This document shows, piece after piece, positions 18,105 to 43,112 of a DNA stretch of 64,000 nt. A model generated the notes under the pieces. The model had not been told where the DNA came from. It ran no database searches and saw only the letters and a list, made by a program, of their open reading frames with translations. The stretch comes from Dehalococcoidia bacterium UBA1162 (lineage in GTDB: Bacteria > Chloroflexota > Dehalococcoidia > GIF9 > UBA5629). How positions within the stretch are numbered: position 1 is the stretch's first letter; each line of letters opens with the position of its first letter. Made by a program: the position numbers and the translations under genes. The stretch lies in contig DBZK01000010.1 in assembly GCA_002311135.1 (NCBI GenBank), forward strand, positions 34,755-98,754, given 5' to 3'.

Positions 18105-19379
18105 ATGCAGGCAGATATCAATGAACTGGTGGGAAAAGCCAAACAGGCCAAAGCTGCTTCTAAAAAGCTGGCCTTCACTCCCACCAAAATAAAAAATGAT
18201 GCACTGGCAGCCATATCTCAAGCCCTGCTGGACCGGGAAGATATGATCTTACATGACAACCAGAAAGACTATAAAGAGGCCGAGGCTTCGGGCATGAGCG
18301 AAGCCATGCTCGACCGCCTGATGCTCAACTCCGGCCGGCTCAAGGGCATATCCGACGACGTGAAGACCGTTGCCGCTTTGCCCGATCCAGTGGGTGAGGT
18401 CATCGAAGAGCGCACCCTGCCCAACGGCCTTCTGCTGAGCAAGCGCCGCGTGCCCTTGGGCGTGATCGGCGCCATCTACGAGAGCAGGCCCAATGTTACC
18501 GTGGATATTTCTGTGCTGTGCCTCAAAGCAGGCAACACTGTCATACTGCGCGGCGGCAAGGAGGCCTACCGCTCCAACCTGGCGCTGGCCAGCACCGTCC
18601 AGGAAGCTGCTTACAAAGCGGGCATACCCGTTGGGTCCGTTCAGTTTATCGAGTCCACCGACCGCAGCCTGGTCGACTATATGCTCAAGCTGAAGGACAG
18701 CATCGACCTGATGATACCCCGCGGCGGCGCGGCGCTGATTAAATCCGTGAAGGATAACGCTGCCATGGCCGTGGTGGCGGGCGGCATAGGCGTCTGCCAT
18801 GCCTACGTGGATAAAACCGCCGACATCGCTAAAGCGGTGGCCATCACATACAACGCCAAGGTGCAGCGCCCCACGGTCTGCAACGCGCTGGACTGCGTGC
18901 TGGTTCACAAGGACATCGCCACCGCTTTCCTGCCCCTGATGGCGAAGGAATGGGACAAGGCAGGCGTGGAGATGCACTGCGACCAGCGCTCACTGGAAAT
19001 ACTAAAATCCATTCACGGATTAAATGTTCATCCTGCTGTAGAAGATGACTGGGGCAAGGAGTTCCTGGCCCTGGTGGGAGCCATAAAGGTGGTCGGCTCT
19101 CTCGACGAGGCGCTGGAGCACATCGACCGCTACGGCTCCGGCCATTCCGAGGCCATCATCAGCGAGGACTCGGCTTCGATCGACCGCTTCTTGAATGAGG
19201 TGGACACTGCCTGCGTTTACGCCAACGCCAGCACCCGTTTCACCGACGGCGGCCAGTTCGGTATGGGCGCCGAAATAGGGATAAGTACACAGAAATTCCA
19301 TGCCCGCGGGCCGATGGCCTTACGTGAGATCACAAGTTACAAATGGTGTATTCGGGGTAACGGACAGATCAGGCCGTAG
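18105..19379 (+). CDS. proA: Gamma-glutamyl phosphate reductase
   Basis: 424 aa aldehyde-dehydrogenase-family protein immediately after proB, with ProA-like sequence (VCNALDCVLVH). Confidence 0.9.
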   Translation: MQADINELVGKAKQAKAASKKLAFTPTKIKNDALAAISQALLDREDMILHDNQKDYKEAEASGMSEAMLDRLMLNSGRLKGISDDVKTVAALPDPVGEVIEERTLPNGLLLSKRRVPLGVIGAIYESRPNVTVDISVLCLKAGNTVILRGGKEAYRSNLALASTVQEAAYKAGIPVGSVQFIESTDRSLVDYMLKLKDSIDLMIPRGGAALIKSVKDNAAMAVVAGGIGVCHAYVDKTADIAKAVAITYNAKVQRPTVCNALDCVLVHKDIATAFLPLMAKEWDKAGVEMHCDQRSLEILKSIHGLNVHPAVEDDWGKEFLALVGAIKVVGSLDEALEHIDRYGSGHSEAIISEDSASIDRFLNEVDTACVYANASTRFTDGGQFGMGAEIGISTQKFHARGPMALREITSYKWCIRGNGQIRP

Positions 19380-19402
19380 ACGACGAAACTCTATATGCTT
19401 AT

Positions 19403-19498
19403 GTCATTGCGAGCGAAGCGAAGCAATCCTTTTAACGAAGGAAGATGGCTTGAACTAATGCCAAGGGATTGCCACGGCACTACGTGCCTCGCAATGAC
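19403..19498. repeat. Palindromic intergenic repeat, GTCATTGCGAG-armed family (copy 1)
   Basis: Forward arm GTCATTGCGAGCGAAGCGAAGCAATCC (19403-19429) and reverse arm GGGATTGCCACGGCACTACGTGCCTCGCAATGAC (19465-19498), separated by a spacer that is itself about 80% identical to the copy at 20581-20679. Confidence 0.65.
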
Positions 19499-19507
19499 CT
19501 AATATAT

Positions 19508-19565
19508 AGAATTTTGAATTTAGAACTTTTTTAGAGCTTAGAGTTTGGTCTTTAGAGTTTTAAGC
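19508..19565. repeat. TTTAGAGCTT/TTGGAATT-type low-complexity intergenic repeat (copy 1)
   Basis: GAATTTTGAATTTAGAACTTTTTTAGAGCTTAGAGTTTGGTCTTTAGAGTTTTAAG. Related copies at 20725-20760, 35293-35344, 35412-35435, 39555-39640 and 42980-43112. Confidence 0.55.
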
Positions 19566-20274
19566 CCTTGAGGGCTTCCTTCTGCTCTTCAAAAAGCTCT
19601 TTGATGCCTTTGTCAGCCAGCACGATCAGCCCGTCGACAGTTTCCTTTGAGAAGGGTTTGCCCTCAGCTGTGCCCTGCAACTCAACAAAGTCGCCTTTAT
19701 CGGTCATGACCACGTTGAAGTCCACGCCGGCGCGGAAGTCTTCGTCATAGCACAGGTCCAGCAACTTCACCCTGTCGACCACGCCCACGCTTATCGCAGC
19801 AATGGCACATTTAAACGGCATGACCTTGTAGATGCCCTGCTTCCTCAGTTTGGCTATAGCCTGGAAAAGCGCCACGTAGGCGCCCGTTATGCTGGCCGTG
19901 CGCGTGCCGCCGTCTGCCTGTAATACATCGCAGTCGACTGTGAAAGTCCTCTCGCCGAGGACGTCCATATCCACCGCTGCACGAAGGCTCCTGCCAATCA
20001 ATCTTTGGATCTCCTGAGCACGTCCCCCCTGCCGGTCCGGGTTGCGCGAGCTGCGGGTATGTGTAGCCCGTGGCAGCATGCCATACTCAGCAGTGACCCA
20101 CCCTGTCCCCTTACCCTTGAGAAAAGGCGGTACCCGGTCCTCCACGCTCACGGCGCATACCACACGCGTATTGCCCATCTGGATCAGCGCGGAGCCCTCA
20201 GGATAGTCCTGGTATCCCAGCGTTATCTTCACCGGCCTTAGCTCGTCATTGCCTCGCCCGTCTATTCTAGCCAT
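19552..20274 (-). CDS. rph: Ribonuclease PH
   Basis: 240 aa. The sequence ([14 protein letters not shown]..., [22 protein letters not shown]) is canonical RNase PH. Confidence 0.85.
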
Positions 20275-20344
20275 TTAAATACCTTCCTTATAGATTCAGG
20301 CGCAAGTATAACACCAAATAGAGATCAAATACTAAGCCATTTAT

Positions 20345-20427
20345 CCCTCTCCCCTGCCCCTCTCCACAGGAGAGGGGGTTATATTTATAAGAGGGTCTAA
20401 AGCCCCTCTTCAACGCCCCCTACCCGG
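20345..20427. repeat. Double-hairpin palindromic element CCCTCT...AGAGGG / AGAGGG...CCCTCT (copy 1)
   Basis: CCCTCTCCCCTGCCCCTCTCCACAGGAGAGGGGGTTATATTTATAAGAGGGTCTAAAGCCCCTCTTCAACGCCCCCTACCCGG, with a near-identical second copy at 32162-32232. Confidence 0.6.
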
Positions 20428-20580
20428 ACGACGTTGCCCTGGGAAAAACATGTCCCCACATCGTTAACTACGAGAAAGTAATCTTTAAATCTCCTTCAGG
20501 ATAATGAGTGTTTTCCTAAGACGTAGTGGATTCCCTCTTCAACGCCTTTTCCCTTTATTATTAAACCGGTTTCCTCAATT

Positions 20581-20724
20581 GTCATTGCGAGCGAAGCGAA
20601 GCAATCCTTTGAACGAAGGAAGAGGGCTGATTTAATGCCATGAGATTGCCACGTCGCCCTGCGGGCTCCTCGCAATGACGTGTCAAAAGGATGATTGCCG
20701 CGGCACTTCGTGCCTCGCAATGAC
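20581..20724. repeat. Palindromic intergenic repeat, GTCATTGCGAG-armed family (copy 2: one forward arm and two reverse arms)
   Basis: Forward arm at 20581-20607, reverse arms at 20644-20679 and 20689-20724. The spacer is homologous to copy 1. Confidence 0.65.
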
Positions 20725-20782
20725 GTAATACTGGAATTTGGAATTTTCTACTTTAGAAATATGCTATCCTTTTAAATTAATC

Positions 20783-21643
20783 ATGCCTGACGTAAATATA
20801 TGGGCGCTGGCCGGTACAGGACTGGTGGCAGGGACGCTGGGCTCTATGCTGGGCGTGGGCGGCGGCATCATGATGGTGCCCATACTGACACTGTGGATGG
20901 GCATACCCATGCAGTACGCCATCGGCAGCAGCCTGGTCTCGATCGTCATCAACGCCTGCACAGCCACCAGTGTATATATCGATAACCATGTGACCAACCT
21001 CAAGCTGGGACTGCTGATGTCCACTACCCTGATCCCCGGGGCGGTGGCCGGGGCCCTGCTGGCCTCCAAACTTTCCTCGCCGGTGCTCAGCTTCATATTC
21101 GGGGCGCTTATGATTTACGTTTGTTATACGCTCATCCCCAGGAAACCCAAACGGCAGAGTATGGAGGAATTCGAAGCCTCCAGGGACCCGCACGAGAAAG
21201 AGCATGCGCCGCATGCCTGGCTGGACGGCAGCTACTACGATCCATCCGTTAAGCAGGAGATCAGCTATCAGACGCACCGTCCGGCCACAGGCATGGCGAC
21301 CGGGTTTTTCGGCGGGGTCATCTCCAGCCTTCTGGGAGTGGGCGGCGGCATTGTCAACGTGCCCGTCTTGAACCTGCTGATGAAGGTGCCCATCAAGGCT
21401 GCCATAGCCACCAGCAGCCTGCTGCTGGCCTTTACTACTATGACCGGCTCACTGATCTACGCTTATAACGGCTACGTTATGCCCTATATCATAGCGCCGC
21501 TCATTCCCGGCATTTTCCTGGGTGCCCGGCTGGGTACATTCATCGCCCGGCGTGTCCGGAGCGCCGCTTTGATTGTGATATTTATCGTCTTCCTGCTGGT
21601 AACCTCGGTCTTAATGATTCTGCGTGCCCTGAATATATTATGA
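20783..21643 (+). CDS. TauE/SafE-family sulfite/anion exporter membrane protein
   Basis: Polytopic protein with an internally duplicated 4-TM repeat bearing GxGGG motifs (GVGGGIMMVP and GVGGGIVNVP). The ATG at 20783 is preferred, since the ORF-track start would overlap the repeat element. Confidence 0.7.
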   Translation: MPDVNIWALAGTGLVAGTLGSMLGVGGGIMMVPILTLWMGIPMQYAIGSSLVSIVINACTATSVYIDNHVTNLKLGLLMSTTLIPGAVAGALLASKLSSPVLSFIFGALMIYVCYTLIPRKPKRQSMEEFEASRDPHEKEHAPHAWLDGSYYDPSVKQEISYQTHRPATGMATGFFGGVISSLLGVGGGIVNVPVLNLLMKVPIKAAIATSSLLLAFTTMTGSLIYAYNGYVMPYIIAPLIPGIFLGARLGTFIARRVRSAALIVIFIVFLLVTSVLMILRALNIL

Positions 21644-24322: not shown

Positions 24323-26497
24323 ATGCCCTCTAAGAACGGCAGGGGAAATCATAGAGGTCCGCAGAAGACAAAAAAAGGCTCCGGCAAGTCCTTTCTCAGG
24401 TCGCTATTTTCAGCTCCCGTCATACTGGCCATCCTCTTCGTCATCTTCCTCTGCCTCTGCATAGTATTCTGGCCTCAGATATCGTCCTGGTTTGACAGGC
24501 TGGGCCAGGATATTCACGCGGCACTTTACAGCGCCTGGCTGGCGCTCTTCCGTCTGATGGGTCTGGGTGTGGCCTTTGCCGCACTGGCCTTCCTCAGCCT
24601 CTTCATCATACTCGGCTGGCCATCGTCCTTCGTCCGCCACTGGAATTACTGGCTGGGCACCGCCAGCTTCGCGGCTGCATTGTGGGGCCTGCTGGCCTTC
24701 TTCCGTCCGCCCAACACTTTCATCGTATCTGATGTTACGCTGGGCGGCTATGTAGGGCAGGCCATTATTACCCGTTCGCCTGTGGCGGGAGGCTTCATTG
24801 TGGCCGGACTGATCGTCCTGGGCATCATCCTGGTCGCACCGGAATGGGCCTGGAGCGTGGTCAAGCGCGCTTCCAAGGGCATAGCCGGTTTGGCCGGTGA
24901 GCTCATGTATGTTATCAAAGAGTTCCGTGAGAAGAGGCCGGCGATAGAACCCGTGGAGGCCGATCCGCCTTCCGAAGCGCCTGCTATAGTAGAGCAGGCC
25001 GAACTTGCATCTCCCGCCGACACCATGGACAGGTTGAGGTCGTCAATAATTGTGGGCGGCTGGTCGCTTCCCAATATAAGTATCCTGGACAAGGTCGCCG
25101 AGGCGGTCATCAGCGATGCCGAGATAGAAAAGCGCAAGGAAGTTCTGGAGGAGGCTTTGACCAGCTACGGCGTCGAAGCGAAGGTGGTGGAGGTCAACCG
25201 CGGCCCCACGGTTACGCAGTTCGGCGTGGAGCCGGGCTGGGACCGCAGGTATAAGGAGGTCAGGGAGAAGGACCGGGACGGCAACGTAACCGTCAGGCAG
25301 GAGGAAGTCGGCCGCACGCGGGTCAAGGTGGAGCGCATCAACTCGCTTTCCAACGACCTGGCGCTGGCCCTGGCTGCCCCCGGCATCAGGATCGAAGCCC
25401 CCGTTCCCGGCAAGTCGGTGGTCGGCATCGAGGTTCCCAATACCACCTTCGGGTCGGTGGGCCTGCGAGCTGTGATGGAGAGCACCGCTTTCCAGAAGAT
25501 GCTGGCTAAATCGCCCCTGGCCATCGCCCTCGGCAAGGGAGCCGGAGGTGAGACGGTGGTGGCCGACCTGGCCAAAATGCCCCACCTGCTTATCGCAGGC
25601 GCCACGGGCAGCGGCAAGAGCGTCTGCCTCAACTCTGTCATCTGCTGCCTGATGATGAATAACACTCCCGATGCGGTTCGTTTTGTGATGGTGGATCCCA
25701 AGCGCGTCGAGCTGGTCAACTACAACAGCATCCCACATCTTATAGCCCCGGTGGTGGTAGATACCGACAAGGCCATCCTGGCCCTGCGCTGGCTCAACGC
25801 CGAGATGGACAGCCGTTACAAGCGTTTCTCGGCCACCAGGACACGCAATATCGAGGACTATAACAAGAACCGCACGCTTTCGGAGCGCATGGCTTATATT
25901 GTTGTCATCATAGACGAGCTGGCCGACCTCATGATGGCCGCCTTCGACGAGGTCGAGCACGGTTTGTGCCGTCTGGCCCAGCTTGCCCGCGCCACGGGCA
26001 TACATTTGATCGTAGCAACACAGAGGCCGTCGGTGGACGTGGTCACCGGGTTGATTAAGGCCAATTTCCCCACGCGCATCACCTTCGCTTTGATCTCGCA
26101 GGTGGACTCGCGCACCATTATCGACTCCGCCGGCGCCGAGAAGCTTTTGGGAAGGGGCGATATGCTTTATATGCCGCAGGACGTCTCCAAGCCCAAGCGT
26201 TTGCAGGGCACGATAGTCGGCGATCCCGAGATCGAGAGGCTGGTCACCTTCTGGTCCGCTCAGCGCCGCCAGGAAGCGCAGCCGGTGAGGTTCGAGGATA
26301 TGGCCCAGTCCGGTCCCGAGGGCCGGAAACCTATGGACGATGAATTGCTGGATGCCGCCCGCCAGCTTGCCCTCGAATCCAAAGAGATATCCGCCTCATT
26401 CCTCCAGCGCAAGCTTCAGATCGGCTTCCCCCGCGCCGCACGTCTCATGGACAAGCTAAAAGAGGAGGGGTATGGGAAAGAGAAGGGAGAAGGGTAG
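24323..26497 (+). CDS. ftsK: DNA translocase FtsK/SpoIIIE
   Basis: 724 aa with N-terminal TM helices, the motor-domain Walker A GATGSGKS and a C-terminal gamma-like winged-helix tail. Confidence 0.85.
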   Translation: MPSKNGRGNHRGPQKTKKGSGKSFLRSLFSAPVILAILFVIFLCLCIVFWPQISSWFDRLGQDIHAALYSAWLALFRLMGLGVAFAALAFLSLFIILGWPSSFVRHWNYWLGTASFAAALWGLLAFFRPPNTFIVSDVTLGGYVGQAIITRSPVAGGFIVAGLIVLGIILVAPEWAWSVVKRASKGIAGLAGELMYVIKEFREKRPAIEPVEADPPSEAPAIVEQAELASPADTMDRLRSSIIVGGWSLPNISILDKVAEAVISDAEIEKRKEVLEEALTSYGVEAKVVEVNRGPTVTQFGVEPGWDRRYKEVREKDRDGNVTVRQEEVGRTRVKVERINSLSNDLALALAAPGIRIEAPVPGKSVVGIEVPNTTFGSVGLRAVMESTAFQKMLAKSPLAIALGKGAGGETVVADLAKMPHLLIAGATGSGKSVCLNSVICCLMMNNTPDAVRFVMVDPKRVELVNYNSIPHLIAPVVVDTDKAILALRWLNAEMDSRYKRFSATRTRNIEDYNKNRTLSERMAYIVVIIDELADLMMAAFDEVEHGLCRLAQLARATGIHLIVATQRPSVDVVTGLIKANFPTRITFALISQVDSRTIIDSAGAEKLLGRGDMLYMPQDVSKPKRLQGTIVGDPEIERLVTFWSAQRRQEAQPVRFEDMAQSGPEGRKPMDDELLDAARQLALESKEISASFLQRKLQIGFPRAARLMDKLKEEGYGKEKGEG

Positions 26498-26555
26498 ATG
26501 AGATGAATTCAATCATTGAGTTGTGATCTGGCGATTGAATAAACTTAATTTGACG

Positions 26556-27161
26556 TCATGCTTTGACTAGTTCTTTGAAAAGAATCCTCGATTTCTCTAA
26601 ATACTGTAAAACTAGCATAGGTTTGCGCCTAGGCGACAGCAATAGCGTACCTGGAGTAATAGCGTTCAAATAAGCACCATAGTGCCGTAATACCATTTCT
26701 TGATATTGATTCCTAGTTAAAGTGTTATTATGGGCTACTCTATTTCTGATGCGTCTCATTTCCTCGATTAAATATCCGTGATTATCCAGTGTTCTGATAA
26801 AATGATCTGTAGGATTAATCAAATATCTAACATTCTCTTTGATATCTTGAATTTTCGACCAACGCAAATATGGCCTTGGTTTACGCCTTCCATAGTGAAT
26901 CATTTTGAAAGTCGCAGCTTGCATATTCCGAGCTGATCCTAGCAATATTGGAGTTGATCCATCCTGATAATTAGCTCCACAAATAACTTTACAAGCTATT
27001 GAACTGATAGAATCCTGTAAAATATCAAACAGCCGAATAATAATAATCTCGGCTACTATTTTCCTATATGTAGGAGCTATTGATGAAATATTTGTCTGGA
27101 GCGTTAATAGTCTGGTTATTTCATTACAGCAAGCTAAATAATCTACATTTAGATTGACCAT
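26556..27161 (-). CDS. HEPN/Abi-like putative RNase (Rx4H motif)
   Basis: 201 aa alpha-helical protein with RIRNRVAHNN, which fits the HEPN Rx4-6H motif as seen in Abi_2/AbiD-F-type proteins. AT-rich gene, separated from the upstream DUF262 gene by only 8 nt. Confidence 0.4.
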   Translation of the reverse strand: MVNLNVDYLACCNEITRLLTLQTNISSIAPTYRKIVAEIIIIRLFDILQDSISSIACKVICGANYQDGSTPILLGSARNMQAATFKMIHYGRRKPRPYLRWSKIQDIKENVRYLINPTDHFIRTLDNHGYLIEEMRRIRNRVAHNNTLTRNQYQEMVLRHYGAYLNAITPGTLLLSPRRKPMLVLQYLEKSRILFKELVKA

Positions 27162-27169
27162 GCAATACC

Positions 27170-28192
27170 TTAGCTTATGTGAAGAGCTCTTTTTAGGTAT
27201 TGATTACGTATAGTGCGCTGTTTAATCCTCTGCGTCGTAGATGTACAGGCCATATAAAAATCAGCGTCATCCTTTTCCCTTTCCGCAAATGGGATATCTG
27301 AAGTAAAATTTGCATCGACTGCATGCAATGCATTCTCTAGACGAACTTTTGCTATACGTCCGTTAATTGAGTCTAAAACTAAAAACAGTGAAAAGAAGAT
27401 AGGATGTCTAGAAAAGATCGTATCTCGTATCACTCCTGCATCAAGGTCGGCTATCTTACTGAAAACCATTTCCATACGGTCTTTCAGTTCCTCCTGCATA
27501 GGAAAATCATCATCGTATTCCTTATAAAATTTGTCTATCACTGTTGCGCTATAATCGGACAATCCATTAATCATATTCAAAGCTAATTCGGCCACAAATT
27601 GTACTTCGCTCATACGTGCAATATCATTGGCCGTAAAAATGCCTAAATCGCGCCAAAGCTGCACATGGGTTGCGGCGCTGTTTAAACAAAATTGTTTCAT
27701 TTCTCCGCTAAACCTAGCGTTTCGCTTTTCCTGTTCATTTAACGTCTTAGCAACCGAATTAAGACGCCCAAATATTTCAATCACGTCTGAATCATCAGCA
27801 CCTATTAAATAGCCGACAGATAAACTTGTCATGAGAAATTTCTCACGCTCTTTCGGATGTAGATCGCGGTACAGTAGTCTTTTCTTATGATCCGGGTGCA
27901 ACGCACCAAAAGATCCATCTATAAATTCAAGAATCGAACGTATTCTCTGTTGTCCGTCGACAACTTCTTTGATGCTCTTTTCTGAATCAATATCCAAATA
28001 GTGACGTATATATATAGATGGAATCGGCTTCTGTTCAAACAGAGAATTGATTAAGTAGGCTTTCTGTGCTCGTGTCCAGACCGAACGACGCTGGTACCAC
28101 GGATTAATATTGAGTTCCTTCCCCTGATACGAATTTAGTACTTCTTTTACGACCAATTTTTCATAATCTACACGTTCCATACTAACCTCCAA
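27170..28192 (-). CDS. DUF262 (ParB-like / GmrSD N-terminal domain) protein lacking a DUF1524 nuclease domain
   Basis: NPWYQRRSVW and VVDGQQRIRSI are the signature DUF262 motifs. The C-terminal roughly 120 aa are alpha-helical with no recognised motif. Low-GC gene. Confidence 0.65.
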   Translation of the reverse strand: MEVSMERVDYEKLVVKEVLNSYQGKELNINPWYQRRSVWTRAQKAYLINSLFEQKPIPSIYIRHYLDIDSEKSIKEVVDGQQRIRSILEFIDGSFGALHPDHKKRLLYRDLHPKEREKFLMTSLSVGYLIGADDSDVIEIFGRLNSVAKTLNEQEKRNARFSGEMKQFCLNSAATHVQLWRDLGIFTANDIARMSEVQFVAELALNMINGLSDYSATVIDKFYKEYDDDFPMQEELKDRMEMVFSKIADLDAGVIRDTIFSRHPIFFSLFLVLDSINGRIAKVRLENALHAVDANFTSDIPFAEREKDDADFYMACTSTTQRIKQRTIRNQYLKRALHIS

Positions 28193-28498
28193 TCTAATTT
28201 ATCTGTACAGGGATGCACAGTTTTTTAGAATCAGTATTATCAAACTCGTAAATAATAATCATCAATAATCTTACTCTCATCAGACTTGACGCTCAACAAG
28301 ATATATTTTTCACGATCGTGCGAGAAGTTCTCAGACCAATCGATTAAATGCTTAGCTCAATCTCTTTACCGTCATCCACTACCAATACACCAACTCTAGC
28401 TGCCGGATATCCCATGAACCTCGCTAGGGGACAATCGCGTGAATTTATCCTTGGTCATTCGTGCCGTGCGAAAAAGATATGTAATCTGTTTTTAGTAA

Positions 28499-28705
28499 TT
28501 AAGACAGGTCCTGATGAAGTATCTCTTTAACCCGGCCAACCTGGCCGCTTTCTAGACGGACCTTGATGCCATGGGGGTGAAATGAGGCGTTTGTCAAAAT
28601 GTCTTTGACTATCCCCTCTGTTAATTTTCCGGACCGTTGATCCGTCTTCAATACTATTGAGACCCGCAGGCCCGATTTTATATTTTCACGCCTTGTAACG
28701 CTCAT
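28499..28705 (-). CDS. YwbE-family (DUF2196) small protein
   Basis: 68 aa. GLRVSIVLKTDQRSGKLTEGIVKDILTNASFHPHGIKVRLESGQVGRV closely matches YwbE-like proteins. Confidence 0.55.
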   Translation of the reverse strand: MSVTRRENIKSGLRVSIVLKTDQRSGKLTEGIVKDILTNASFHPHGIKVRLESGQVGRVKEILHQDLS

Positions 28706-28734
28706 GCCCTAATTCTAACTCTTATTATTCTACT

Positions 28735-28977
28735 TCACTGCGCATCCCGTCTGATCGGCTTAAGAAGGTATCCCAATCCGTTAAGTTTTATTTCATACAG
28801 AGCGGCTAATAGCGCACCAATTTTTCCCGGTGGGAAACCTTTCTGGTGAAACCAGACCAGATAGGGTTCAGGCAGGTCACACAGGACATAGTCTTTGTAT
28901 TTTCCAAAAGGCATTCTTACGGACACCAGGTCAACTAACATTTGGGGATCCATGGGACCGGCCTTATTTTGATCCAT
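28735..28977 (-). CDS. DUF3820-like small protein
   Basis: 80 aa. MPFGKYKDYVLCDLPEPYLVWFHQKGFPPGKIGALL resembles the DUF3820 consensus. Confidence 0.4.
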   Translation of the reverse strand: MDQNKAGPMDPQMLVDLVSVRMPFGKYKDYVLCDLPEPYLVWFHQKGFPPGKIGALLAALYEIKLNGLGYLLKPIRRDAQ

Positions 28978-29094
28978 TATTACTTAATCCAAATACAATA
29001 CATACTATAACCGAATTTAAGGTAAGCGAATAATAATACACCATGTCCGACACTGTCTGAAGGATGTACTGAATTTCCTGGGAATGTGATAAAA

Positions 29095-29130
29095 TATTGG
29101 ATGTTGGATGTATGACATCTTACATCCAAT
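29095..29130 (+). promoter_or_regulatory. Candidate operator/promoter of the AbrB-PIN toxin-antitoxin operon
   Basis: Perfect inverted repeat TTGGATGTA-N8-TACATCCAA (29104-29112 / 29121-29129), preceded by a direct repeat of TTGGATG and an A/T-rich -10-like GATAAAAT, about 12 nt upstream of the antitoxin ATG. Confidence 0.4.
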
Positions 29131-29141
29131 GCTAAAAGCTA

Positions 29142-29426
29142 ATGAGCAAGAAATTATCAGATGACATTACAGTCCGTGAAAAGCGGCAGGTTACGCTTCC
29201 ACGTTATATCTGCGAACAGCTCGGAATTGAAGAAGGAGACCGGCTGACTTTATACGTGGACGGTGACAAACTTATTGCAAAAGCTAACAAAACTGTTGCG
29301 CTGGATGCCCTAAATGAACTACACAGGATATTCAAGGATTCTGAAGTCACCGAGAAAGAGCTATTGAAGACCAGCCGCCAAATACGCAAACAACTGGTCA
29401 AGAAAGAGTATGGTCGCCAGCACTGA
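29142..29426 (+). CDS. AbrB/MazE/SpoVT-family antitoxin
   Basis: 94 aa. VTLPRYICEQLGIEEGDRLTLYVDGDKLI is a swapped-hairpin AbrB-type DNA-binding domain, and the gene overlaps the downstream PIN gene by 17 nt. Confidence 0.6.
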   Translation: MSKKLSDDITVREKRQVTLPRYICEQLGIEEGDRLTLYVDGDKLIAKANKTVALDALNELHRIFKDSEVTEKELLKTSRQIRKQLVKKEYGRQH

Positions 29427-29844
29427 CCTGCGCGTATTCCTCGACAGCGATGTCATCATATCAGGCTTTTTTTTCGCCTCCGGAACTCCCGCTCAAATAC
29501 TTGAATTGCACTTCAATGGAAGGCTTCATATCATAGTATGCCGGCTCATTATTGAAGAAGTGGTCCGCACAATTACAAAAAAGAAGACGCAAGCCCTGCC
29601 TGCTCTCCAAATGTTTTTAACGAGCTCTCCGCCGGAAATTGTCAAAAATCCACCGCTTCAAGAGATTGAGCGTTGGACTAAGATTCTTCAATTCGAGGAT
29701 GCTATTATTCTGGCGGCCGCCAGGAGCGCCGAACCTGACTACTTCGTTACCGGCGACCAGCACTTCCACGTACCATCCCTAGTAGATAAGTCCGGCCTGC
29801 GCATAGTAACGCCCGCTCAGTTGTTAAGATCAATTAAAAAGTGA
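29410..29844 (+). CDS. PIN-domain toxin (VapC-like)
   Basis: 144 aa with conserved acidic residues at FLDSDVII, FEDAIILAAA and VTGD, consistent with the PIN fold. Confidence 0.65.
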   Translation: MVASTDLRVFLDSDVIISGFFFASGTPAQILELHFNGRLHIIVCRLIIEEVVRTITKKKTQALPALQMFLTSSPPEIVKNPPLQEIERWTKILQFEDAIILAAARSAEPDYFVTGDQHFHVPSLVDKSGLRIVTPAQLLRSIKK

Positions 29845-29931
29845 CCGCAGTTTGTGTTCATTCATTAAAGGTGTTCAAGCGAAATATGCTAATATCTAAA
29901 ACATTTAAAGCTGATTCATGCGGAGCTGGAA

Positions 29932-31068
29932 ATGACCGTAAAATCTTTTTATTTTGCGCCACTATTAATGTTCATCGTTTTCGCTCTTGTATTTAATTCC
30001 TGCCAGGCGCCCAAATATTATGATAACGTTCAACGCGTCTTTCCTGCGGTAGTACGCGTGAGCACGGAGGACGAAATAGGCTCGGGCGTCATCGTAACGG
30101 ACACGGGCTACATATTGACCAGCAATCATGTGTTGCACGATAGCAAGTCCCCCATCGTGATGCTGAACAACGGCTCCCAGTATCAGGCTACAGTTGCAAC
30201 GGTGGATAGCGCCAGGGACCTGGCGGTCATTAAATTGCCCGATAATCCGGCGGGCTATCCGTATGCTACCCTGGGCAGTTCGACCGAGTCGAACACACTG
30301 CAGATCGGCAGCCCGGTGCTGGTGATCGGCTACCCGGGCGAAAACGATATCAACCACCTGATGCTCAGCACCGGCAGTATCTGCGCTTTCCCCAGGATCG
30401 ATTCGGTCGGCTTCCTGCAGAGTGAGGCAAAGGCCTACCCCGGCAGCAGCGGCGGCCCTATGACCAACAGCAACGGCGATGTAGTAGGCATCATCAACAG
30501 CCGGTACACCAACCTTAAGGACTCCTGCTCCACCTTTGCCACAGCTATAAACGAAGCGAAACCGCTGCTCGACAACCTTGCTACCGGCGGGCAGCCTGTA
30601 GCTGTGGCACCGGAGGAAAATATCACCTCCGCCTCAAGTTTGCCATGCGCCAGCGTGGGCTGCCTGGCTCCCGATTTCAGCCTTCCCACCGTCGACCAGA
30701 AAGAGCTCACGTTAAGTTCACTTAAGGGCAAAAAGGTCATAGTGGCATTTCTTTCGACAACCTGCAACGCCTGCCTTCAGACCATGCAGTGCCTGCTTCC
30801 CATTTACGCCACCTGGCCGAGAGACCAGCTTGAGATGGTATTCGTAGTCAGCGGGGAGCAGTTCGACGACGTTCAGCATTGGGTAAAACTGTATGGCATA
30901 AAATGCCCGGTGGTGCTCGATTCACTGGAACTTGTTCTGAATCAATATCAACCCGACCAGTCTCCTGCCCTCTATTTCTTGACGGCCGACGGGCATATAA
31001 AGATTACGAAATTTCCCCCCATCGACGGCTGTACAGCGCAATTCGATGCCCTGCTGAGGCTTTATTAG
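29932..31068 (+). CDS. Secreted trypsin-like (S1) serine protease fused to a thioredoxin-fold TlpA/redoxin-like domain
   Basis: Signal peptide, S1 catalytic triad context (TSNHVL, ARDLAVIKL, GSSGGP), then a C-terminal domain with CxxC (FLSTTCNACLQ) in a TlpA/AhpC-TSA-like arrangement. Confidence 0.65.
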   Translation: MTVKSFYFAPLLMFIVFALVFNSCQAPKYYDNVQRVFPAVVRVSTEDEIGSGVIVTDTGYILTSNHVLHDSKSPIVMLNNGSQYQATVATVDSARDLAVIKLPDNPAGYPYATLGSSTESNTLQIGSPVLVIGYPGENDINHLMLSTGSICAFPRIDSVGFLQSEAKAYPGSSGGPMTNSNGDVVGIINSRYTNLKDSCSTFATAINEAKPLLDNLATGGQPVAVAPEENITSASSLPCASVGCLAPDFSLPTVDQKELTLSSLKGKKVIVAFLSTTCNACLQTMQCLLPIYATWPRDQLEMVFVVSGEQFDDVQHWVKLYGIKCPVVLDSLELVLNQYQPDQSPALYFLTADGHIKITKFPPIDGCTAQFDALLRLY

Positions 31069-31077
31069 GTTATTAAA

Positions 31078-31165
31078 TGACCGTAAAGCCTTTTTATCTT
31101 GCTCCATTACTGATATTAATTGCCCTGCCGACGGGGAGATAGATTCTTTGCTGAGGCTTTATTAG
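31078..31165 (+). pseudogene. Degenerate remnant of a paralog of the protease-thioredoxin gene (5' about 60 nt fused to the last about 23 nt)
   Basis: ATGACCGTAAAGCCTTTTTATCTTGCTCCATTACTGATATTAATTGCC is about 75% identical to the start of the 29932 gene. It ends with CTGCTGAGGCTTTATTAG, identical to that gene's 3' end, and encodes only MTVKPFYLAPLLILIALPTGR before a stop. Confidence 0.5.
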
Positions 31166-32108
31166 CCACCCCCTTTAACCTTTCCAAAGCCAGTTCGCAG
31201 TAGGCGCGATCTATATCGTACCCGACATATTCCCTTTTGGCTTGAAGCGCGGCCAGGCAGGTAGAGCCGCTGCCTGCGAAGGGATCGAGCACCACCTCGC
31301 CTTCGAAGGTATAGAGCTGGATCAAACGGCGGGGCAACTCCAGCGGAAAGGGGGCCGGGTGGCCTATTTTCCCGGCACGTTCGGACGGGAACTTCCAGAT
31401 GCTCCTGGTGAATTCTAAAAACTCCTCCCTGGATATGGTGCTCATTCTTTTGCAGGGATTGGGACGCGTAAAGGACTGCTTGCAGAAAACGAGGATGTAC
31501 TCATGCACGTCGCGCAGCACCGGGTTGCCGGCCTTCATATAGGTACCCCAGGCGGTGGACGAGCCGGCACTGCTGCCCTTGTCCCAGAGAATCTCGCCGC
31601 GCATCAGGAATCCGGACTCTTGCATGGCCCTGCTAATATGCGAGTTAAGGGGAATGTAGGGCTTGCGCCCCAGGTTGGCGATATTTATGCAGGCCCTTCC
31701 GCCGGGCACGAGCACCCTGTACGTTTCGGCGAATACCCGCTTCAGCAGTCCTAAGTATTGGTCAAGTGAAAGGTCATCGTCGTATTGCTTGCCCACATTG
31801 TAGGGGGGAGATGTGACCATGAGGTGTACCGAGCAGTCCGGCAGCTCTGACATATGCTCGCTGCTTTTGCAAAAGATCCTGTTGATATATTTGCCCGGGA
31901 TTTTATTTTCAACGTAAACGGCCTTTTTATCTTCTTCGAGGCCGTCATATAGCTTGCCCTTGTAGAATTTAGAGGAGTCGTGGCTGATCCGCCCCTGAGT
32001 TCCGAAGGCGCTGGTGCTCGTGCGCTTATGTTTTTTCTGAGATGGATTAGTTTTCATTATGCGTATTATATTTGAAGTCTCGGTGGAACGCGAGTTTTTC
32101 GCTGACAA
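31116..32108 (-). CDS. Orphan DNA methyltransferase (amino-MTase, SPPY motif IV; N4-cytosine or N6-adenine)
   Basis: MVTSPPYNVGKQYDD (motif IV) and a C-terminal FxGSGST SAM-binding motif (DPFAGSGSTCLAA) are typical of beta-class N4C/N6A MTases. No adjacent restriction endonuclease candidate. Confidence 0.75.
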   Translation of the reverse strand: MSAKNSRSTETSNIIRIMKTNPSQKKHKRTSTSAFGTQGRISHDSSKFYKGKLYDGLEEDKKAVYVENKIPGKYINRIFCKSSEHMSELPDCSVHLMVTSPPYNVGKQYDDDLSLDQYLGLLKRVFAETYRVLVPGGRACINIANLGRKPYIPLNSHISRAMQESGFLMRGEILWDKGSSAGSSTAWGTYMKAGNPVLRDVHEYILVFCKQSFTRPNPCKRMSTISREEFLEFTRSIWKFPSERAGKIGHPAPFPLELPRRLIQLYTFEGEVVLDPFAGSGSTCLAALQAKREYVGYDIDRAYCELALERLKGVANKASAKNLSPRRQGN

Positions 32109-32161
32109 TGATGATTTATCCCCTCATGTAAAGACCGAGCATAGGTAACACCTTAAACCGG

Positions 32162-32232
32162 CCCTCTCCCGATGGAAGAGGGAATTCTATATATAAGAGG
32201 GGCTAAAGCCCCTCTTCAACACCCCTTGCCCG
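32162..32232. repeat. Double-hairpin palindromic element CCCTCT...AGAGGG (copy 2)
   Basis: CCCTCTCCCGATGGAAGAGGGAATTCTATATATAAGAGGGGCTAAAGCCCCTCTTCAACACCCCTTGCCCGG, homologous to 20345-20427. Confidence 0.6.
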
Positions 32233-32318
32233 GTCAGCCTTACTTTTAGAACACATCTCCCGCGTCGCTGGTTACGAATTGGGAAGGAGTTCCCTCCTCA
32301 AAGCCTGCCTATTCAAAC

Positions 32319-32346
32319 GTCATTGCGAGCGATAGCGTGGCAATCC
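32319..32346. repeat. GTCATTGCGAG-family repeat (solo forward arm, copy 3)
   Basis: GTCATTGCGAGCGATAGCGTGGCAATCC, followed by an unrelated small hairpin TTCACCGATTGACC...GGTCGGTGAA at 32362-32389. Confidence 0.55.
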
Positions 32347-32437
32347 TTTATTAACTCACGTTCACCGATTGACCTCTCGGTCGGTGAAATGGCATAATTC
32401 AAAATCCAACTTAAAATAAAACCCCGGAGGTCTAACT

Positions 32438-33973
32438 ATGGAAACATTTCCCTGGTGGAGCAAAGCACAAATCGAGCTGGCGGAAGATGCCAAGAAATTT
32501 ACCGACGAGGTCTTAGTACCCATCGGCGAGCGGGATGCCCTTTTGAGAAAGTTCAGCCGTGAAGGCCTGGCTAAAATGGCCGGTAAGGGCTGGTTCGGGG
32601 CGCTCATCCCCAAAAAATATGGGGGTCGTGCCGAGGAGTGGGGTGTAACCGGTGCAGCCATTATCATGGAGGAGACTTCCAGGGCAGGAGAATCCGCGGG
32701 CGGGCTGGGCACGACCATGTTCGGCAGCGCCACCCAGATAGTGCACAACGGCAATGAGGAGCAGAAGCAGAAATGGCTGCCGGGCATAGCCAGGGGCGAG
32801 CTGATCGGCTGTATCACCATGACCGAGCCGTATGCCGGTTCGGACATAGCCGGCATCGAGACCACGGCAGTCCGCCAGGGCGATTTTTATATTATTAACG
32901 GCAAGAAACGCTTCCAGACCATAGCTGCCGCCGCCGACCTTTATATGTGCTATTTCCTCACCAGCGACAAGCCGGAGGACAGGGCCAAATATAACCATCT
33001 CGGCGCCTTTGTAGTTGAGAAAGGCACGCCCGGTTTCCATATTGAGCGTATGAATGACACCATGGGATATGACGGCTCATACAACTGCTATCTGAGCTTC
33101 GACGATGCCAAGGTGCCGACCTTTAACCGGCTGGGGCAGGAAGGCGAAGGCTGGAAGATCATGATGAGCGGACTCAACGTAGAGAGGATACTCAATGCCT
33201 CTCCTACACTGGGACCCCAGCGTGAATGTATCCGTTACGCACAGCAGCACCTTGAAAGGCGCATCCAGTTCGGCCAGCCGACAGGCTCCATTGCCACCAA
33301 CCAGTTCAAGCTGGCTGACATGATCTGGAAGCTATATCTAAGCAGGCTGATCGTCTATTATGGCGCTTACTGCGCCGACCTCGGCAAGGACGTGCCGGTT
33401 GAAGCGGCCATCTCCAAGATGTTCTCCTCCGATTCGGCGATGGAGACTGCGCTGGAAGCAGTTCAGTGCATGGGTGGCAACGGCATTATGAAGATCTACC
33501 CCGTGGAAAGGCTTTTCCGCGATGCCAAGCATGCCCAGATAGCTGCCGGCACTTCGGAAATTTTGAAACTGCTTATCTATCGTCAGGGCACCAGGAATCT
33601 GAAAAATGACCTCAAGGTCCCACAGAGGGTTATCGATCCCGAGCTTGGCCTGCCACTGCCCGTCGGCAAACCCCTGCCGAAGAAAACGGCTAAAGGTGAA
33701 GAGGACCTTCTGAAAGTCCTGGCCGAGAACTACAGGACCAATCCCGGGCTGTATATGACGCTGGATGATATCAAAGAGTGGCTGGATATCTCGGACGCCG
33801 ACCTTATCAAATACCTGGAAAGCTTGGAGAAACAGGGCCTGGCCGGGTGCTACCGCACACGTAAGGGCATATCACTGGCCAGGGTTACCTATAAAGGGCT
33901 GCAAAAAGCCAATCCTCCTGAGTATTACAAATACCGCCCATCCTGGCTGAAAGACGATCAGGACTTCTGGTGA
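32438..33973 (+). CDS. Acyl-CoA dehydrogenase with an extra C-terminal, roughly 130-aa winged-helix-like domain
   Basis: About 380 aa of ACAD fold followed by an extension (LDDIKEWLDISDADLIKYLESLEKQGLAGCYRTRKGISLARVTY) that resembles a winged-helix domain. Confidence 0.75.
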   Translation: METFPWWSKAQIELAEDAKKFTDEVLVPIGERDALLRKFSREGLAKMAGKGWFGALIPKKYGGRAEEWGVTGAAIIMEETSRAGESAGGLGTTMFGSATQIVHNGNEEQKQKWLPGIARGELIGCITMTEPYAGSDIAGIETTAVRQGDFYIINGKKRFQTIAAAADLYMCYFLTSDKPEDRAKYNHLGAFVVEKGTPGFHIERMNDTMGYDGSYNCYLSFDDAKVPTFNRLGQEGEGWKIMMSGLNVERILNASPTLGPQRECIRYAQQHLERRIQFGQPTGSIATNQFKLADMIWKLYLSRLIVYYGAYCADLGKDVPVEAAISKMFSSDSAMETALEAVQCMGGNGIMKIYPVERLFRDAKHAQIAAGTSEILKLLIYRQGTRNLKNDLKVPQRVIDPELGLPLPVGKPLPKKTAKGEEDLLKVLAENYRTNPGLYMTLDDIKEWLDISDADLIKYLESLEKQGLAGCYRTRKGISLARVTYKGLQKANPPEYYKYRPSWLKDDQDFW

Positions 33974-34048
33974 TTGGGTACTGCCCTCACCAGATGTTCG
34001 ACTACACTAGTCAATCATTCATAAATCCTGTCCAATTATTGACCTCAA

Positions 34049-35296
34049 TTGCTGAATTATTTTAAACGTAATGAGACCCTGCTCATTCTCTGCATAGCGG
34101 GCATGCTCATGAACATGGGGATGGGTCAGGTCAGCCCCATACTGGCGCTGTATGCCCGGCAGTTCGGCATAAACATGACGCTGGTCGGACTCATCATAAC
34201 CGCTTTTGCCTTTGCCAGCGCCATCGTGGATATCCCGGCAGGCAGAATTGCCGAGCGGCTGGGCCGCCGCCCCACCCTTATCGCAGGCTGTCTGGTGCTG
34301 GCTGCCGGGTCGGTGGGATGTGCGCTGGCACCCGGCTACTGGCTTTTTGTGGTCTGCCGCCTTATTCAGGGTACCGGCTACGCCCTCTACACCACCACAG
34401 CTATGATCATGCTGACTGATATAAGTACCGTGCATAACCGCGGCAACAATATGGGATGGTATATGGGCAGCGCATGGATCGGCTTCGGCCTGGGACCGAT
34501 CAGCGGCGGCTTTATCGGCCAGTACTTCGGCTTGCCGGCAGTATTCTATGTGTATGCCTTTTTCTGCGCGCTGGCAGCGGTTTGGGCCTTCCTGCGACTG
34601 CCCGAGACTCACCACTACCATGCCAGACAATCAATTGCAGAGCCGGGTGATCGTCCGCCTGCAACGGGAGCAAGGCTTAGCATCAAAGATCTGCTGGTCA
34701 ACCCCAATTTTATGCTGATCTGCCTCATTGCTTTTTGCGTATTCTTTACCAACGACGGATCACGATATCAAATATTGCCGCTGCTTTCTCATGACCGCCT
34801 CGGCCTAACCCCGAGCGAAATAGGTTTGGCTGTGACCGTAATAGCCGCGGCCAATATAATTGTGCAGCTGATCATCGGAAGGCTATCCGACAAGGTGGGC
34901 AGAAAGCCCATGATCCTCCCCGGGTGCATTCTCCTGGCAGTCTCTCTGGTGATATGGATGCTGAGTGCCAATTACCAGTTCATACTCTTAGGTTGTATAG
35001 TATTCGGGATAGGCATAGGCATAACCGGGCCCACCCCGGCCGCATACGTAGCCGACATACTTTCGGGCCAAAACTCCAGCGGCGGTATGAGCATCTTCAG
35101 GACGGCCTGCGACCTGGGCTTCGTCGTCGGCCCTGTTTTCCAGGGATGGCTGGCAGATATGAACGGATTTGATTTCCCGCTGATCTTCAATGCCGTCCTG
35201 CTGTTCACAGCCGCGCTGGTTTTCCAGATCGTGGCCAGGGAGCACCCTTCCTTTGCAGCCCGGAACAACACGAAGCCAATAAACACTAAGTTCTAA
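34049..35296 (+). CDS. MFS transporter
   Basis: 12-TM architecture with an MFS signature GRIAERLGRRP in loop 2-3. The TTG start at 34049 is uncertain. Confidence 0.7.
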   Translation: MLNYFKRNETLLILCIAGMLMNMGMGQVSPILALYARQFGINMTLVGLIITAFAFASAIVDIPAGRIAERLGRRPTLIAGCLVLAAGSVGCALAPGYWLFVVCRLIQGTGYALYTTTAMIMLTDISTVHNRGNNMGWYMGSAWIGFGLGPISGGFIGQYFGLPAVFYVYAFFCALAAVWAFLRLPETHHYHARQSIAEPGDRPPATGARLSIKDLLVNPNFMLICLIAFCVFFTNDGSRYQILPLLSHDRLGLTPSEIGLAVTVIAAANIIVQLIIGRLSDKVGRKPMILPGCILLAVSLVIWMLSANYQFILLGCIVFGIGIGITGPTPAAYVADILSGQNSSGGMSIFRTACDLGFVVGPVFQGWLADMNGFDFPLIFNAVLLFTAALVFQIVAREHPSFAARNNTKPINTKF

Positions 35297-35435
35297 ACAA
35301 GTTCAAAACTCAAAGCTTAAACAATATTGGAATTTGGTTGAGAGATTGCTCCGCTGTCGCTCGCAATGACCTGTTTCCTGAATTGTCATTGCGAGGTTGG
35401 TTGATGGATTGCTTTTTAGAGCTTAGAATTTCCCC
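35293..35435. repeat. Composite intergenic repeat block: TTTAGAGCTT-type units flanking GTCATTGCGAG-family arms (copy 4)
   Basis: CTAAACAAGTTCAAAACTCAAAGCTTAAACAATATTGGAATTTGG (35293-35344), reverse arm GATTGCTCCGCTGTCGCTCGCAATGAC (35345-35370), forward arm GTCATTGCGAGGTTGGTTGATGGATTGC (35384-35411), then TTTTTAGAGCTTAGAATTT. Confidence 0.6.
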
Positions 35436-39515: not shown

Positions 39516-39554
39516 GTTAAATAAGCTGAAGGGGGGATCAACCCTCCTTCAGCT

Positions 39555-39640
39555 CGAAATAAGTTCAAAGCTCAAAGCCTAAATTTGAATTTTGTATTTT
39601 GGGTTTGTTTAGGATTTAGTATTTAGGGTTTAGTGTTTCA
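39555..39640. repeat. TTTAGAGCTT/TTGGAATT-type low-complexity intergenic repeat (copy, convergent gene junction)
   Basis: AAGTTCAAAGCTCAAAGCCTAAATTTGAATTTTGTATTTTGGGTTTGTTTAGGATTTAGTATTTAGGGTTTAGTG. Confidence 0.55.
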
Positions 39641-42979: not shown

Positions 42980-43112
42980 AAACTCTAAATACTAAATCCT
43001 AAACAAATTCCAAACTCCAAATGTTACTATGGTTGGGTTTTGAGTTTTGAACTTATTTAGAGCTTGGAGTTTAGTATTTAGAATTTGAAATTTGTTTGGA
43101 GCTTGGAATTTT
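42980..43112. repeat. Long imperfect palindrome built from TTTAGAGCTT/TTGGAGTT-type units
   Basis: AAACTCTAAATACTAAATCCTAAACAAATTCCAAACTCCAAA (42980-43021) is the approximate reverse complement of TTTGGAGCTTGGAGTTTAGTATTTAGAATTTGAAATTTGTTTGGAGCTTGGAATT (43060-43112). Shares its core with the copies at 19508, 35293 and 39555. Confidence 0.6.

Follow-up and report, generated by a model that had tools for sequence, protein, structure and literature searches.

A DUF262–HEPN operon of probable foreign origin in a variable slot beside ftsK of an uncultured Dehalococcoidia bacterium

The stretch of DNA analysed here, hereafter the window, comprises 64,000 nucleotides of Dehalococcoidia bacterium UBA1162 (contig DBZK01000010.1, positions 34,755 to 98,754). 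An initial annotation had marked the segment 26,498–32,437, between ftsK and an acyl-CoA dehydrogenase gene (acd), as an accessory island of about 5.9 kb with a low guanine + cytosine (GC) content. Our analysis indicates that the slot between ftsK and the small gene ywbE (26,498 to ~28,330) probably holds an intact, horizontally acquired operon of two genes, DUF262 and HEPN, with an architecture like that of the PD-T4-2 system, and that the other genes are inherited neighbours. The slot, its content and its two anchors are as follows:

24,323–26,497, plus strand: ftsK, the conserved left anchor of the slot (Pfam FtsK_alpha, FtsK_SpoIIIE and FtsK_gamma; GC 0.60)
26,498–28,327, no strand: apparently foreign segment, i.e., the two-gene cassette and its flanks, cargo of the ftsK-proximal slot (composition; absent from all 44 related loci)
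26,556–27,161, minus strand: HEPN-family protein of 201 amino acids (aa), a predicted RNase effector (Rx4H motif, weak HEPN matches)
27,170–28,180, minus strand (open reading frame, ORF, to a TTG at 28,192): DUF262/ParB-like NTPase with a helical C-terminal domain, a predicted DNA sensor (Pfam GmrSD_N, PADLOC)
28,330–28,485, minus strand: putative decayed 3′ remnant of a DUF2804 gene, an earlier slot occupant (matches a remnant in the related locus L005)
28,499–28,705, minus strand: YwbE/DUF2196, a conserved small protein that anchors the slot on its right (Pfam DUF2196 1.4e-32, TIGR03833)

The genes named in the initial annotation (a DUF262 and HEPN pair, YwbE, DUF3820, an AbrB-PIN pair, a protease-thioredoxin fusion with a remnant, and a methyltransferase, MTase) were correct according to Pfam, PADLOC and NCBIfam, with a weak match for HEPN. 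The lack of a recombinase and a tRNA in the segment was likewise borne out by the Pfam, tRNA and Rfam scans. No recombinase domain was among the Pfam matches of the proteins encoded in 26,498–32,437, and neither a tRNA nor a match to Rfam families was found there. No direct repeats were seen flanking the segment.

GC content was profiled in 1-kb steps over the whole window, and then at 300-bp resolution. For each segment, GC (as z) and dinucleotide signature (as delta*) were compared with those of all equally sized background windows. The background GC was ~0.52, with 0.58–0.61 in ftsK, and the 1-kb profile dipped to 0.38–0.43 between 27 and 30 kb. The sharp fall that had been reported after the ftsK stop codon at 26,497 was seen, going from 0.60 to 0.37 within ~150 bp in the 300-bp profile, and GC then stayed at 0.35–0.40 until ~28,300 and at 0.38–0.48 until ~30,000. 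The recovery had been placed around the MTase gene and the repeats at 32,162–32,346. It took place already at 30,000–30,100, where GC regained 0.50–0.60 inside the protease gene, ~2 kb ahead of the MTase gene and the repeat block.

From 26,498 to 28,327 GC was 0.374 (z −4.6), a value as low as that of none of the 544 background windows, and delta* was 119, against 54 ± 14 in the background (maximum 91). From 28,328 to 29,930 GC was 0.44 (z −2.5) with a native dinucleotide signature (delta* 48), and 29,932–32,161 was native in both measures (GC 0.529, z 0.2, delta* 42). The shift in composition is real and significant, clearly for ~1.8 kb and for ~3.5 kb at most, not for 5.9 kb. The sliding analysis of GC and signature, which had been proposed as a check on the island, thus found a significant shift at 26,498–28,327, the sole outlier in GC and dinucleotide signature together, and the rest of the 5.9 kb was not foreign in both measures.

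For synteny, the FtsK protein was scanned against one genome per GTDB species. This gave 44 loci (L001, L002, etc.), of which ~30 belong to one and the same clade of Dehalococcoidia, and we compared the loci by tblastn and ORF clustering. The closest locus lay on a complete chromosome of a metagenome-assembled genome (OY970123.1, FtsK 95% identical), and ftsK was 70–95% identical across the ~30 Dehalococcoidia loci. The order of the backbone was RNase J, ftsK, the slot, DUF2196, DUF3820, in some loci AbrB-PIN, further genes, protease-thioredoxin, MTase, in some loci acd, a major facilitator superfamily (MFS) transporter and a coenzyme A (CoA) ligase. No match to DUF262 or HEPN was found in the 44 related loci, even at an E-value of 1e-3. 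The six non-cassette genes downstream of ftsK were all present in L002 and L005, five of them were present in L001, together with a tblastn match to DUF2196, and L022 and L033 kept subsets. These genes had 65–95% aa identity to the copies in relatives, and GC there was equally low or native.

The alignment of syntenic regions, the other check that had been suggested, revealed an empty site for the DUF262 and HEPN pair only, which was absent in 44 of 44 loci, and six of the eight genes in place in close relatives. What had been named as evidence against an island, namely relatives with the same genes at the same position and with matching composition, was found for these six genes, at 28.4–32.4 kb. 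Because relatives share the six genes with the same composition, the claim of a 5.9-kb island fails for 28.4–32.4 kb and holds for 26.5–28.3 kb. The idea of a horizontally acquired defence island survives as an apparently foreign defence element, of ~1.8 kb instead of 5.9 kb and looking intact rather than decayed. DUF2196, DUF3820, AbrB-PIN, the protease-thioredoxin gene and the MTase gene appear to be vertically inherited neighbours, each with its own smaller history of indels or allele replacement.

It is therefore very improbable that the whole of 26,498–32,437 is a single old, decayed, horizontally acquired defence or stress island, with the palindromic repeats as its right junction, and synteny has largely refuted this already. 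All eight genes are of accessory type, and the mean GC of the whole segment (0.455) is below that of every background window of equal size, but this low mean is driven by the 1.8-kb cassette, and the native signatures at 28,328–29,930 and 29,932–32,161 argue against a single island. The wider region is flexible over long timescales, and the more distant L007, L008, L009 and L019 have different genes between DUF3820 and the CoA-ligase gene. Against this stand the six genes, which the closest relatives keep in synteny and whose identities are similar to those of the core genes on either side, and the repeats, which lie at the same place in relatives and are also dispersed elsewhere.

The two cassette genes are closely linked, the HEPN gene lying 8 bp downstream of the DUF262 gene and co-oriented on the minus strand. 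In all five long contigs from other phyla, a DUF262 gene of 335–336 aa was followed, after 5–10 bp, by a HEPN-family gene of 201–202 aa. The flanks of the cassette were unrelated in these five contigs, and in one an integrase adjoined it. Among metagenome loci that carry the HEPN gene and have room upstream, 42 of ~45 had DUF262 immediately upstream of the HEPN gene. The GC of the cassette was below that of its flanks in 11 of 13 other hosts. Within the source species the cassette is fixed: the arrangement was the same in all 24 of the contigs examined that carry the identical HEPN protein, and in all 24 examined that carry the identical DUF3820 protein. The DUF262 protein had 1,607 detectable homologues, the best of which outside the species were 60–69% identical and came from Acidobacteriota, Bipolaricaulota, Desulfobacterota, Zixibacteria and Anaerolineae. 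For the HEPN protein a word-indexed search gave 24 homologues, with 39–58% identity. On plasmids (PLSDB) only distant relatives of DUF262 were found, at 25–38% identity.

Empty sites, with a spacing of 19–35 bp between ftsK and DUF2196, were present in L007, L011, L013, L023, L033 and L040. L033 is a very close relative, 97% identical over the C-terminal part of FtsK. Because of its outlier composition, its absence from the 44 relatives, the empty sites and its nearest homologues in other phyla, the DUF262 and HEPN pair appears to be foreign. The opposite history, in which the pair was ancestral at this site and was deleted in relatives, its low GC reflecting a local mutational or functional constraint, seems most unlikely to us. 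Low GC can indeed be intrinsic to conserved small genes here, as DUF2196, DUF3820 and AbrB-PIN show, and the fixation of the cassette in the species would fit as well. However, its dinucleotide signature is far outside the range of the genome, not even a fragment of the pair was found in any relative, and the same slot in relatives holds unrelated cargo. Homologues nearest in other phyla, and a GC lower than that of the flanks in most other hosts, typical of mobile genes, also argue against an ancestral pair.

At least 16 relatives had other DNA in the same slot, 0.8–5.6 kb each. The GC of this cargo was 0.33–0.49, compared with 0.58–0.63 in the adjacent ftsK (0.48 in L017). Except for a few shared families the cargos were mutually unrelated, of ~10 unrelated types, and many were nucleases, restriction-modification genes or PADLOC candidates:

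L012, L022: Dcm-Vsr fusion methylase and DUF4928 protein
L019: Mrr
L010, L016, L020: HNH endonuclease
L005: PADLOC candidate PDC-M11A (2e-212), HNH_5 and ASCH
L035: HARE-HTH protein
L022: NOV_C protein and IS1595 transposase
L036: ClpP/SDH-type protease
L014: DUF5677
L001, L002, L004, L025: proteins without a Pfam or PADLOC match

Since at least 16 relatives hold other low-GC cargo there and some are empty, the gap between the convergent ftsK and ywbE/DUF2196 genes is a hotspot, at which unrelated low-GC cargo, mostly nuclease, restriction or defence genes, has been repeatedly gained and lost. The remainder of the slot in the window may carry a trace of such turnover. L005 has a 60-aa remnant at this position, to which the translation of 28,330–28,485, interrupted by three in-frame stops, was 38% identical (E 0.004, from a search of only a 306-bp segment). 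The remnants in L005 and L004, better kept than that of the window, share 75–86% identity with the C-terminal end of the L033 DUF2804 protein. This is weak evidence for a DUF2804 remnant at 28,330–28,485, though it would agree with cargo having been replaced there more than once.

Neither att-like direct repeats nor a conserved motif at the junctions could be seen at the slot, and a scan of 26.3–29.2 kb for promoters and terminators gave counts not above shuffled expectation. We propose that the cargo of the slot would most likely be exchanged by homologous recombination in the conserved flanks, since the slot lacks a recombinase, a tRNA and direct repeats on its two sides. The slot resembles known integration hotspots and defence islands flanked by core genes in its many unrelated defence-type cargos between the same conserved genes, its empty sites and the low GC of the cargo. 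It differs from them in the very small size of the cargo (0.8–5.6 kb), in lacking an integrase or tRNA, and in its site, where ftsK and ywbE of uncultured Dehalococcoidia converge with their 3′ ends.

In L001 (12,180–13,858), L002 (3,810–4,802) and L004 (6,000–7,016), the ftsK stop codon coincides with, or is directly followed by, the start of a protein of 330–338 aa (GC 0.33) that neither Pfam nor PADLOC matches. The start codon of this protein and the ftsK stop overlap as ATGA in L001 and L002, and in L001 its gene is followed by that of a 214-aa protein with a tRNA_anti-like oligonucleotide/oligosaccharide-binding (OB) fold. The 330–338-aa protein is a candidate defence cargo of the slot.

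With respect to the cassette proteins, the DUF262 ORF has 340 aa when read from the TTG. The real start is probably the ATG at 28,180, giving 336 aa and matching the family length of 335–336 aa. Pfam GmrSD_N (PF03235, 1e-21) covered residues 16–161 of the 340-aa ORF, and motifs I–III (QRRSVW, DGQQR, FGRLN) were all present and are invariant in the family. The C-terminal half is helical and gave no nuclease match. No DUF1524, HNH or other DNase domain was found in the DUF262 or the HEPN protein by Pfam and PADLOC. The PADLOC model NsnA matched nearly end to end (5.8e-31; residues 8–332 of the protein, 46–374 of the 385 model positions), and PD-T4-2_A matched in two stretches (5.5e-24). The AlphaFold2 model had a predicted local distance difference test score (pLDDT) of 86, and its top Foldseek matches were BrxU, ParB, Noc and SspE. 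A phmmer search against the PDB returned only noise.

The AlphaFold2 model of the HEPN protein was all-helical, with a pLDDT of 95. The motif R139-x4-H144 (RNRxAH) was invariant across 25 homologues. HEPN_Swt1 was matched by 19 of the 25 family members and HEPN_RiboL-PSP by 13, each below threshold. A profile search of the PDB with the HEPN family found nothing.

PD-T4-2 of E. coli ECOR65 is listed as ‘DUF262, HEPN’, has two ORFs in ~1.54 kb and natively defends against T4 (PMC9519451). Reviews group it with Menshen and Dazbog as DUF262 systems without DUF1524 (PMC10952713, PMC12065111), and ParB-HEPN operons were catalogued already in 2013 (PMC3710099). We compared the cassette with PD-T4-2 (RCO39066.1; QOYX01000002:338334-339873) through the PADLOC models and the listed architecture. 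Both are two-gene operons of ~1.5–1.6 kb that encode a DUF262 protein without a DUF1524 nuclease and a small HEPN protein. The HEPN gene of the cassette is adjacent and co-oriented, its Rx4H lies within the Rx4-6H motif, and half of its family touches HEPN_RiboL-PSP (PF18735), the domain listed for PD-T4-2. They differ in that the host here is an uncultured member of the Chloroflexota and the cassette is known from sequence only. DUF262 loci of enterobacteria and of a Rhizobium plasmid were considered as further references for PD-T4-2 and discarded, their neighbours having no match to HEPN or PD-T4-2_B.

Menshen (NsnABC) shares with the cassette the DUF262 protein, which matches NsnA over its full length, i.e., a ParB-DUF262 domain and a helical C-terminal domain similar to ‘ParBDB’ (PMC12065111). 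The sole partner in the cassette is the 201-aa HEPN gene, and genes for the NsnB ABC-ATPase and the NsnC inPIN effector are lacking. Membership in Menshen therefore fails; the cassette is flanked by ftsK and the non-coding remnant, and the same two-gene form occurs in other phyla. The type IV restriction enzymes GmrSD, BrxU and SspE share the N-terminal DUF262 domain with QRxxxW, DGQQR and FxxxN, and BrxU was the best structural match. In contrast to them, the cassette has no DUF1524 HNH domain and its effector would be a separate protein with a predicted RNase fold. Membership in GmrSD/BrxU fails as well, with no DUF1524 or HNH in either cassette protein. The cassette is best described as a putative divergent member of the known DUF262 and HEPN architecture.

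Several results weigh against a horizontally acquired, PD-T4-2-like defence operon. The DUF262 protein fits NsnA better than PD-T4-2_A, which would make the homology to PD-T4-2 architectural and not demonstrated. PADLOC PD-T4-2_B matched neither the HEPN protein of the window (E ≤ 0.01) nor any of the 25 family members (E ≤ 1). The Pfam HEPN matches of the 201-aa protein (HEPN_Swt1) were below the gathering score, and its top Foldseek hits in the PDB, HEPN toxins of the HEPN-MNT type, were not significant (E 0.87). No HEPN homologue was found in INPHARED phages, PLSDB plasmids or IMG/VR, and the mechanism of insertion at the slot is one we only infer.

GmrSD, BrxU and SspE detect modified DNA through their DUF262 domain, which activates a nuclease by means of NTP hydrolysis (PMC10952713, PMC12065111). 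By analogy with these enzymes and with PD-T4-2, the DUF262 protein would bind and sense invading, possibly modified, phage DNA, and its NTP hydrolysis would switch on the HEPN partner. The activated HEPN protein would then cleave RNA and halt phage replication, probably at the cost of the growth of the infected cell. The most likely working model, as we infer it, is a HEPN RNase switched on by a DUF262 NTPase that senses DNA.

The cassette might instead be foreign without being an RNA-targeting anti-phage system, either as an addiction module of the toxin-antitoxin (TA) kind, with a HEPN toxin curbed by DUF262, or as a variant of type IV-like restriction that attacks DNA. We consider this unlikely, if less so than the two histories rejected above. 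HEPN proteins are common as toxins of TA systems (PMC3710099), HEPN-MNT toxins were the top structural neighbours, and the type IV restriction enzymes of the GmrSD/BrxU kind include DUF262 proteins (PMC10952713). The tight two-gene layout and the mobility across phyla would fit a selfish module equally. On the other hand, neither protein has a DUF1524/HNH or other DNase domain, and PD-T4-2, the only tested system of the same architecture, gives native phage defence. The roles in TA and in abortive infection are also not mutually exclusive.

Downstream of the slot, the genes shared with relatives and the features at the right edge are as follows:

28,735–28,977, minus strand: QSregVF_b (formerly DUF3820) small protein (Pfam 8.5e-31)
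29,142–29,426, plus strand: AbrB/MazE antitoxin (MazE_antitoxin 1e-8; Pfam, NCBIfam)
29,410–29,844, plus strand: PIN_3 toxin (PIN_3 2e-9; Pfam, NCBIfam)
29,932–31,068, plus strand: trypsin-like protease fused to a thioredoxin-like domain (Trypsin_2 and AhpC/TSA; GC 0.54, native)
31,075–31,120, plus strand: remnant, the start of a second protease-thioredoxin paralog (80% identical to 29,930–29,975)
31,116–32,108, minus strand: orphan N4/N6 DNA MTase (N6_N4_Mtase 1e-44, PADLOC MTase_II 5e-128; native composition)
32,162–32,346, no strand: block of dispersed palindromic intergenic repeats resembling repetitive extragenic palindromic (REP) elements, with further copies at 19,402–19,504, 20,357–20,730 and 35,344–35,395
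32,438–33,973, plus strand: acd, an indel of one gene, distinct from the cassette and outside it (lacking in L001 and L033)

DUF2196 was 80–91% identical in relatives, where its GC was 0.41–0.48 even when it abutted ftsK, and DUF3820 was 81–95% identical, with a GC of 0.38–0.48 everywhere. In the window the stop codon of YwbE/DUF2196 is mutated (28,499–28,510; TAG to CAG on the coding strand), giving 68 aa ending in …KEILHQDLS vs 64 aa ending in …KEIINK in relatives. The gene is missing from the public gene calls of the window contig (L045, L112).

The AbrB and PIN genes (29,142–29,844) overlap by 17 nucleotides and represent a predicted TA pair of the VapBC type. The pair was found in the same place in L001, L002, L005, L010, L012, L014 and L016; the matches in L025 were weaker. 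AbrB was 90–93% identical to L001 and L005 (74% to L002), and PIN 65–68% to L001, L002 and L005. The PIN proteins of these three relatives were 77–86% identical to each other, which leaves that of the window as the outlier allele. Sliding identity against the same three loci was 84–97% over DUF2196 and DUF3820 and mostly 85–94% over AbrB, lower against L002, and it fell to 64–77% exactly at the start of PIN. Between PIN and the protease gene there is a gap of ~820 bp, in which the three relatives have an extra gene of 216–255 aa without a Pfam match. Together this suggests an allele replacement or a deletion by recombination inside the AbrB-PIN operon (29,410–29,931).

Orthologues of the protease-thioredoxin gene were 65–74% identical in L001, L002, L005, L022 and L033; L003 also has the gene, and L014, in which the MTase is present, gave only a partial match. 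The gene is fast-evolving, with 40–82% identity among relatives and a sliding identity of 45–91% against L001, L002 and L005. The protease paralog remnant named in the initial annotation is real, with 80% identity to the beginning of the protease gene. Its translation reads MTVKPFYLAPLLILIAL before stops appear, and ~45 nucleotides are left up to the point where the 3′ end of the MTase gene cuts it off. L022 retains two tandem copies (19,111–21,544), and the window copy, about equally distant from both, may be chimeric.

The MTase was 73–89% identical at the same position in L001, L002, L003, L005, L014, L022 and L033, with a sliding identity of 73–92%, and no nuclease gene was found beside it. 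The orthologue in L014 (10,949–11,812) had a GC of 0.36 vs 0.52–0.61 in other relatives, despite 73% protein identity, and may be a replaced allele. The mosaic of identities over PIN, protease and MTase is that of ordinary small-scale indels and recombination in a flexible, vertically inherited region.

The dispersed repeats reported at 32,162–32,346 exist, with copies at three further sites of the window. The element cores are GTCATTGCGAGCGAAGCGAAGCAATC and AAGAGGGGCTAAAGCCCCTCTT, and elements were also found in L001, L003, L025 and L026. The block had been read as a possible recombination junction. In L033 and L005, and partly in L001, it aligns close to the MTase gene just as in the window, and because this position is conserved in relatives, the repeats are not an island junction.

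The acd gene, taken earlier as the right boundary, is itself variable among relatives. L001 and L033 show a clean gap in place of ~32,411–34,003, and in L002 acd is reduced to its first 21 codons. A palindromic operator/promoter CCGATTGACCTCTCGGTCGGTG…TGGCATAAT (32,364–32,397) precedes acd and the MFS gene in the window; in L001 and L033 it is directly followed by the MFS gene only. A second repeat family, AT-rich and imperfect (…AAACTCTAAATACTAAATCCTAAACAAATTC…), has inverted intergenic copies at 35,280–35,323, 39,551–39,631 and 42,980–43,073, and L001 has a similar sequence (…TTTGGGATTTAGTACTTAGTGTTTAGAGTTT…) on the upstream side of the operator.

These results correct an over-extended island call, in which low GC alone had lumped a real 1.8-kb insertion with AT-richer conserved small genes and native genes. 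They leave the general picture of the workings of such systems and islands as it was. They extend the PD-T4-2-like architecture of DUF262 and HEPN to many environmental phyla; the HEPN partner of this family escapes the present PADLOC models. Tentatively, and with somewhat more doubt than confidence, we suggest that the gap between ftsK and ywbE is a lineage-wide, recombinase-free defence hotspot of peat and soil Dehalococcoidia, that its uncharacterised cargos are undescribed anti-phage systems, and that the DUF262-HEPN family is a distinct sister of PD-T4-2 with its own trigger. If the lineage-wide hotspot is true, the candidates would be the 338-aa protein (L001, L002, L004; together with the OB-fold protein in L001), a 149/147-aa pair (L002) and a 248-aa protein (L025). 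The analysis documents a compact hotspot of defence genes beside ftsK in an uncultured, environmentally widespread clade of Dehalococcoidia. This hotspot, which may serve as a source of new defence candidates through guilt by association, and the uncharacterised cargos of the relatives are its most useful by-product.

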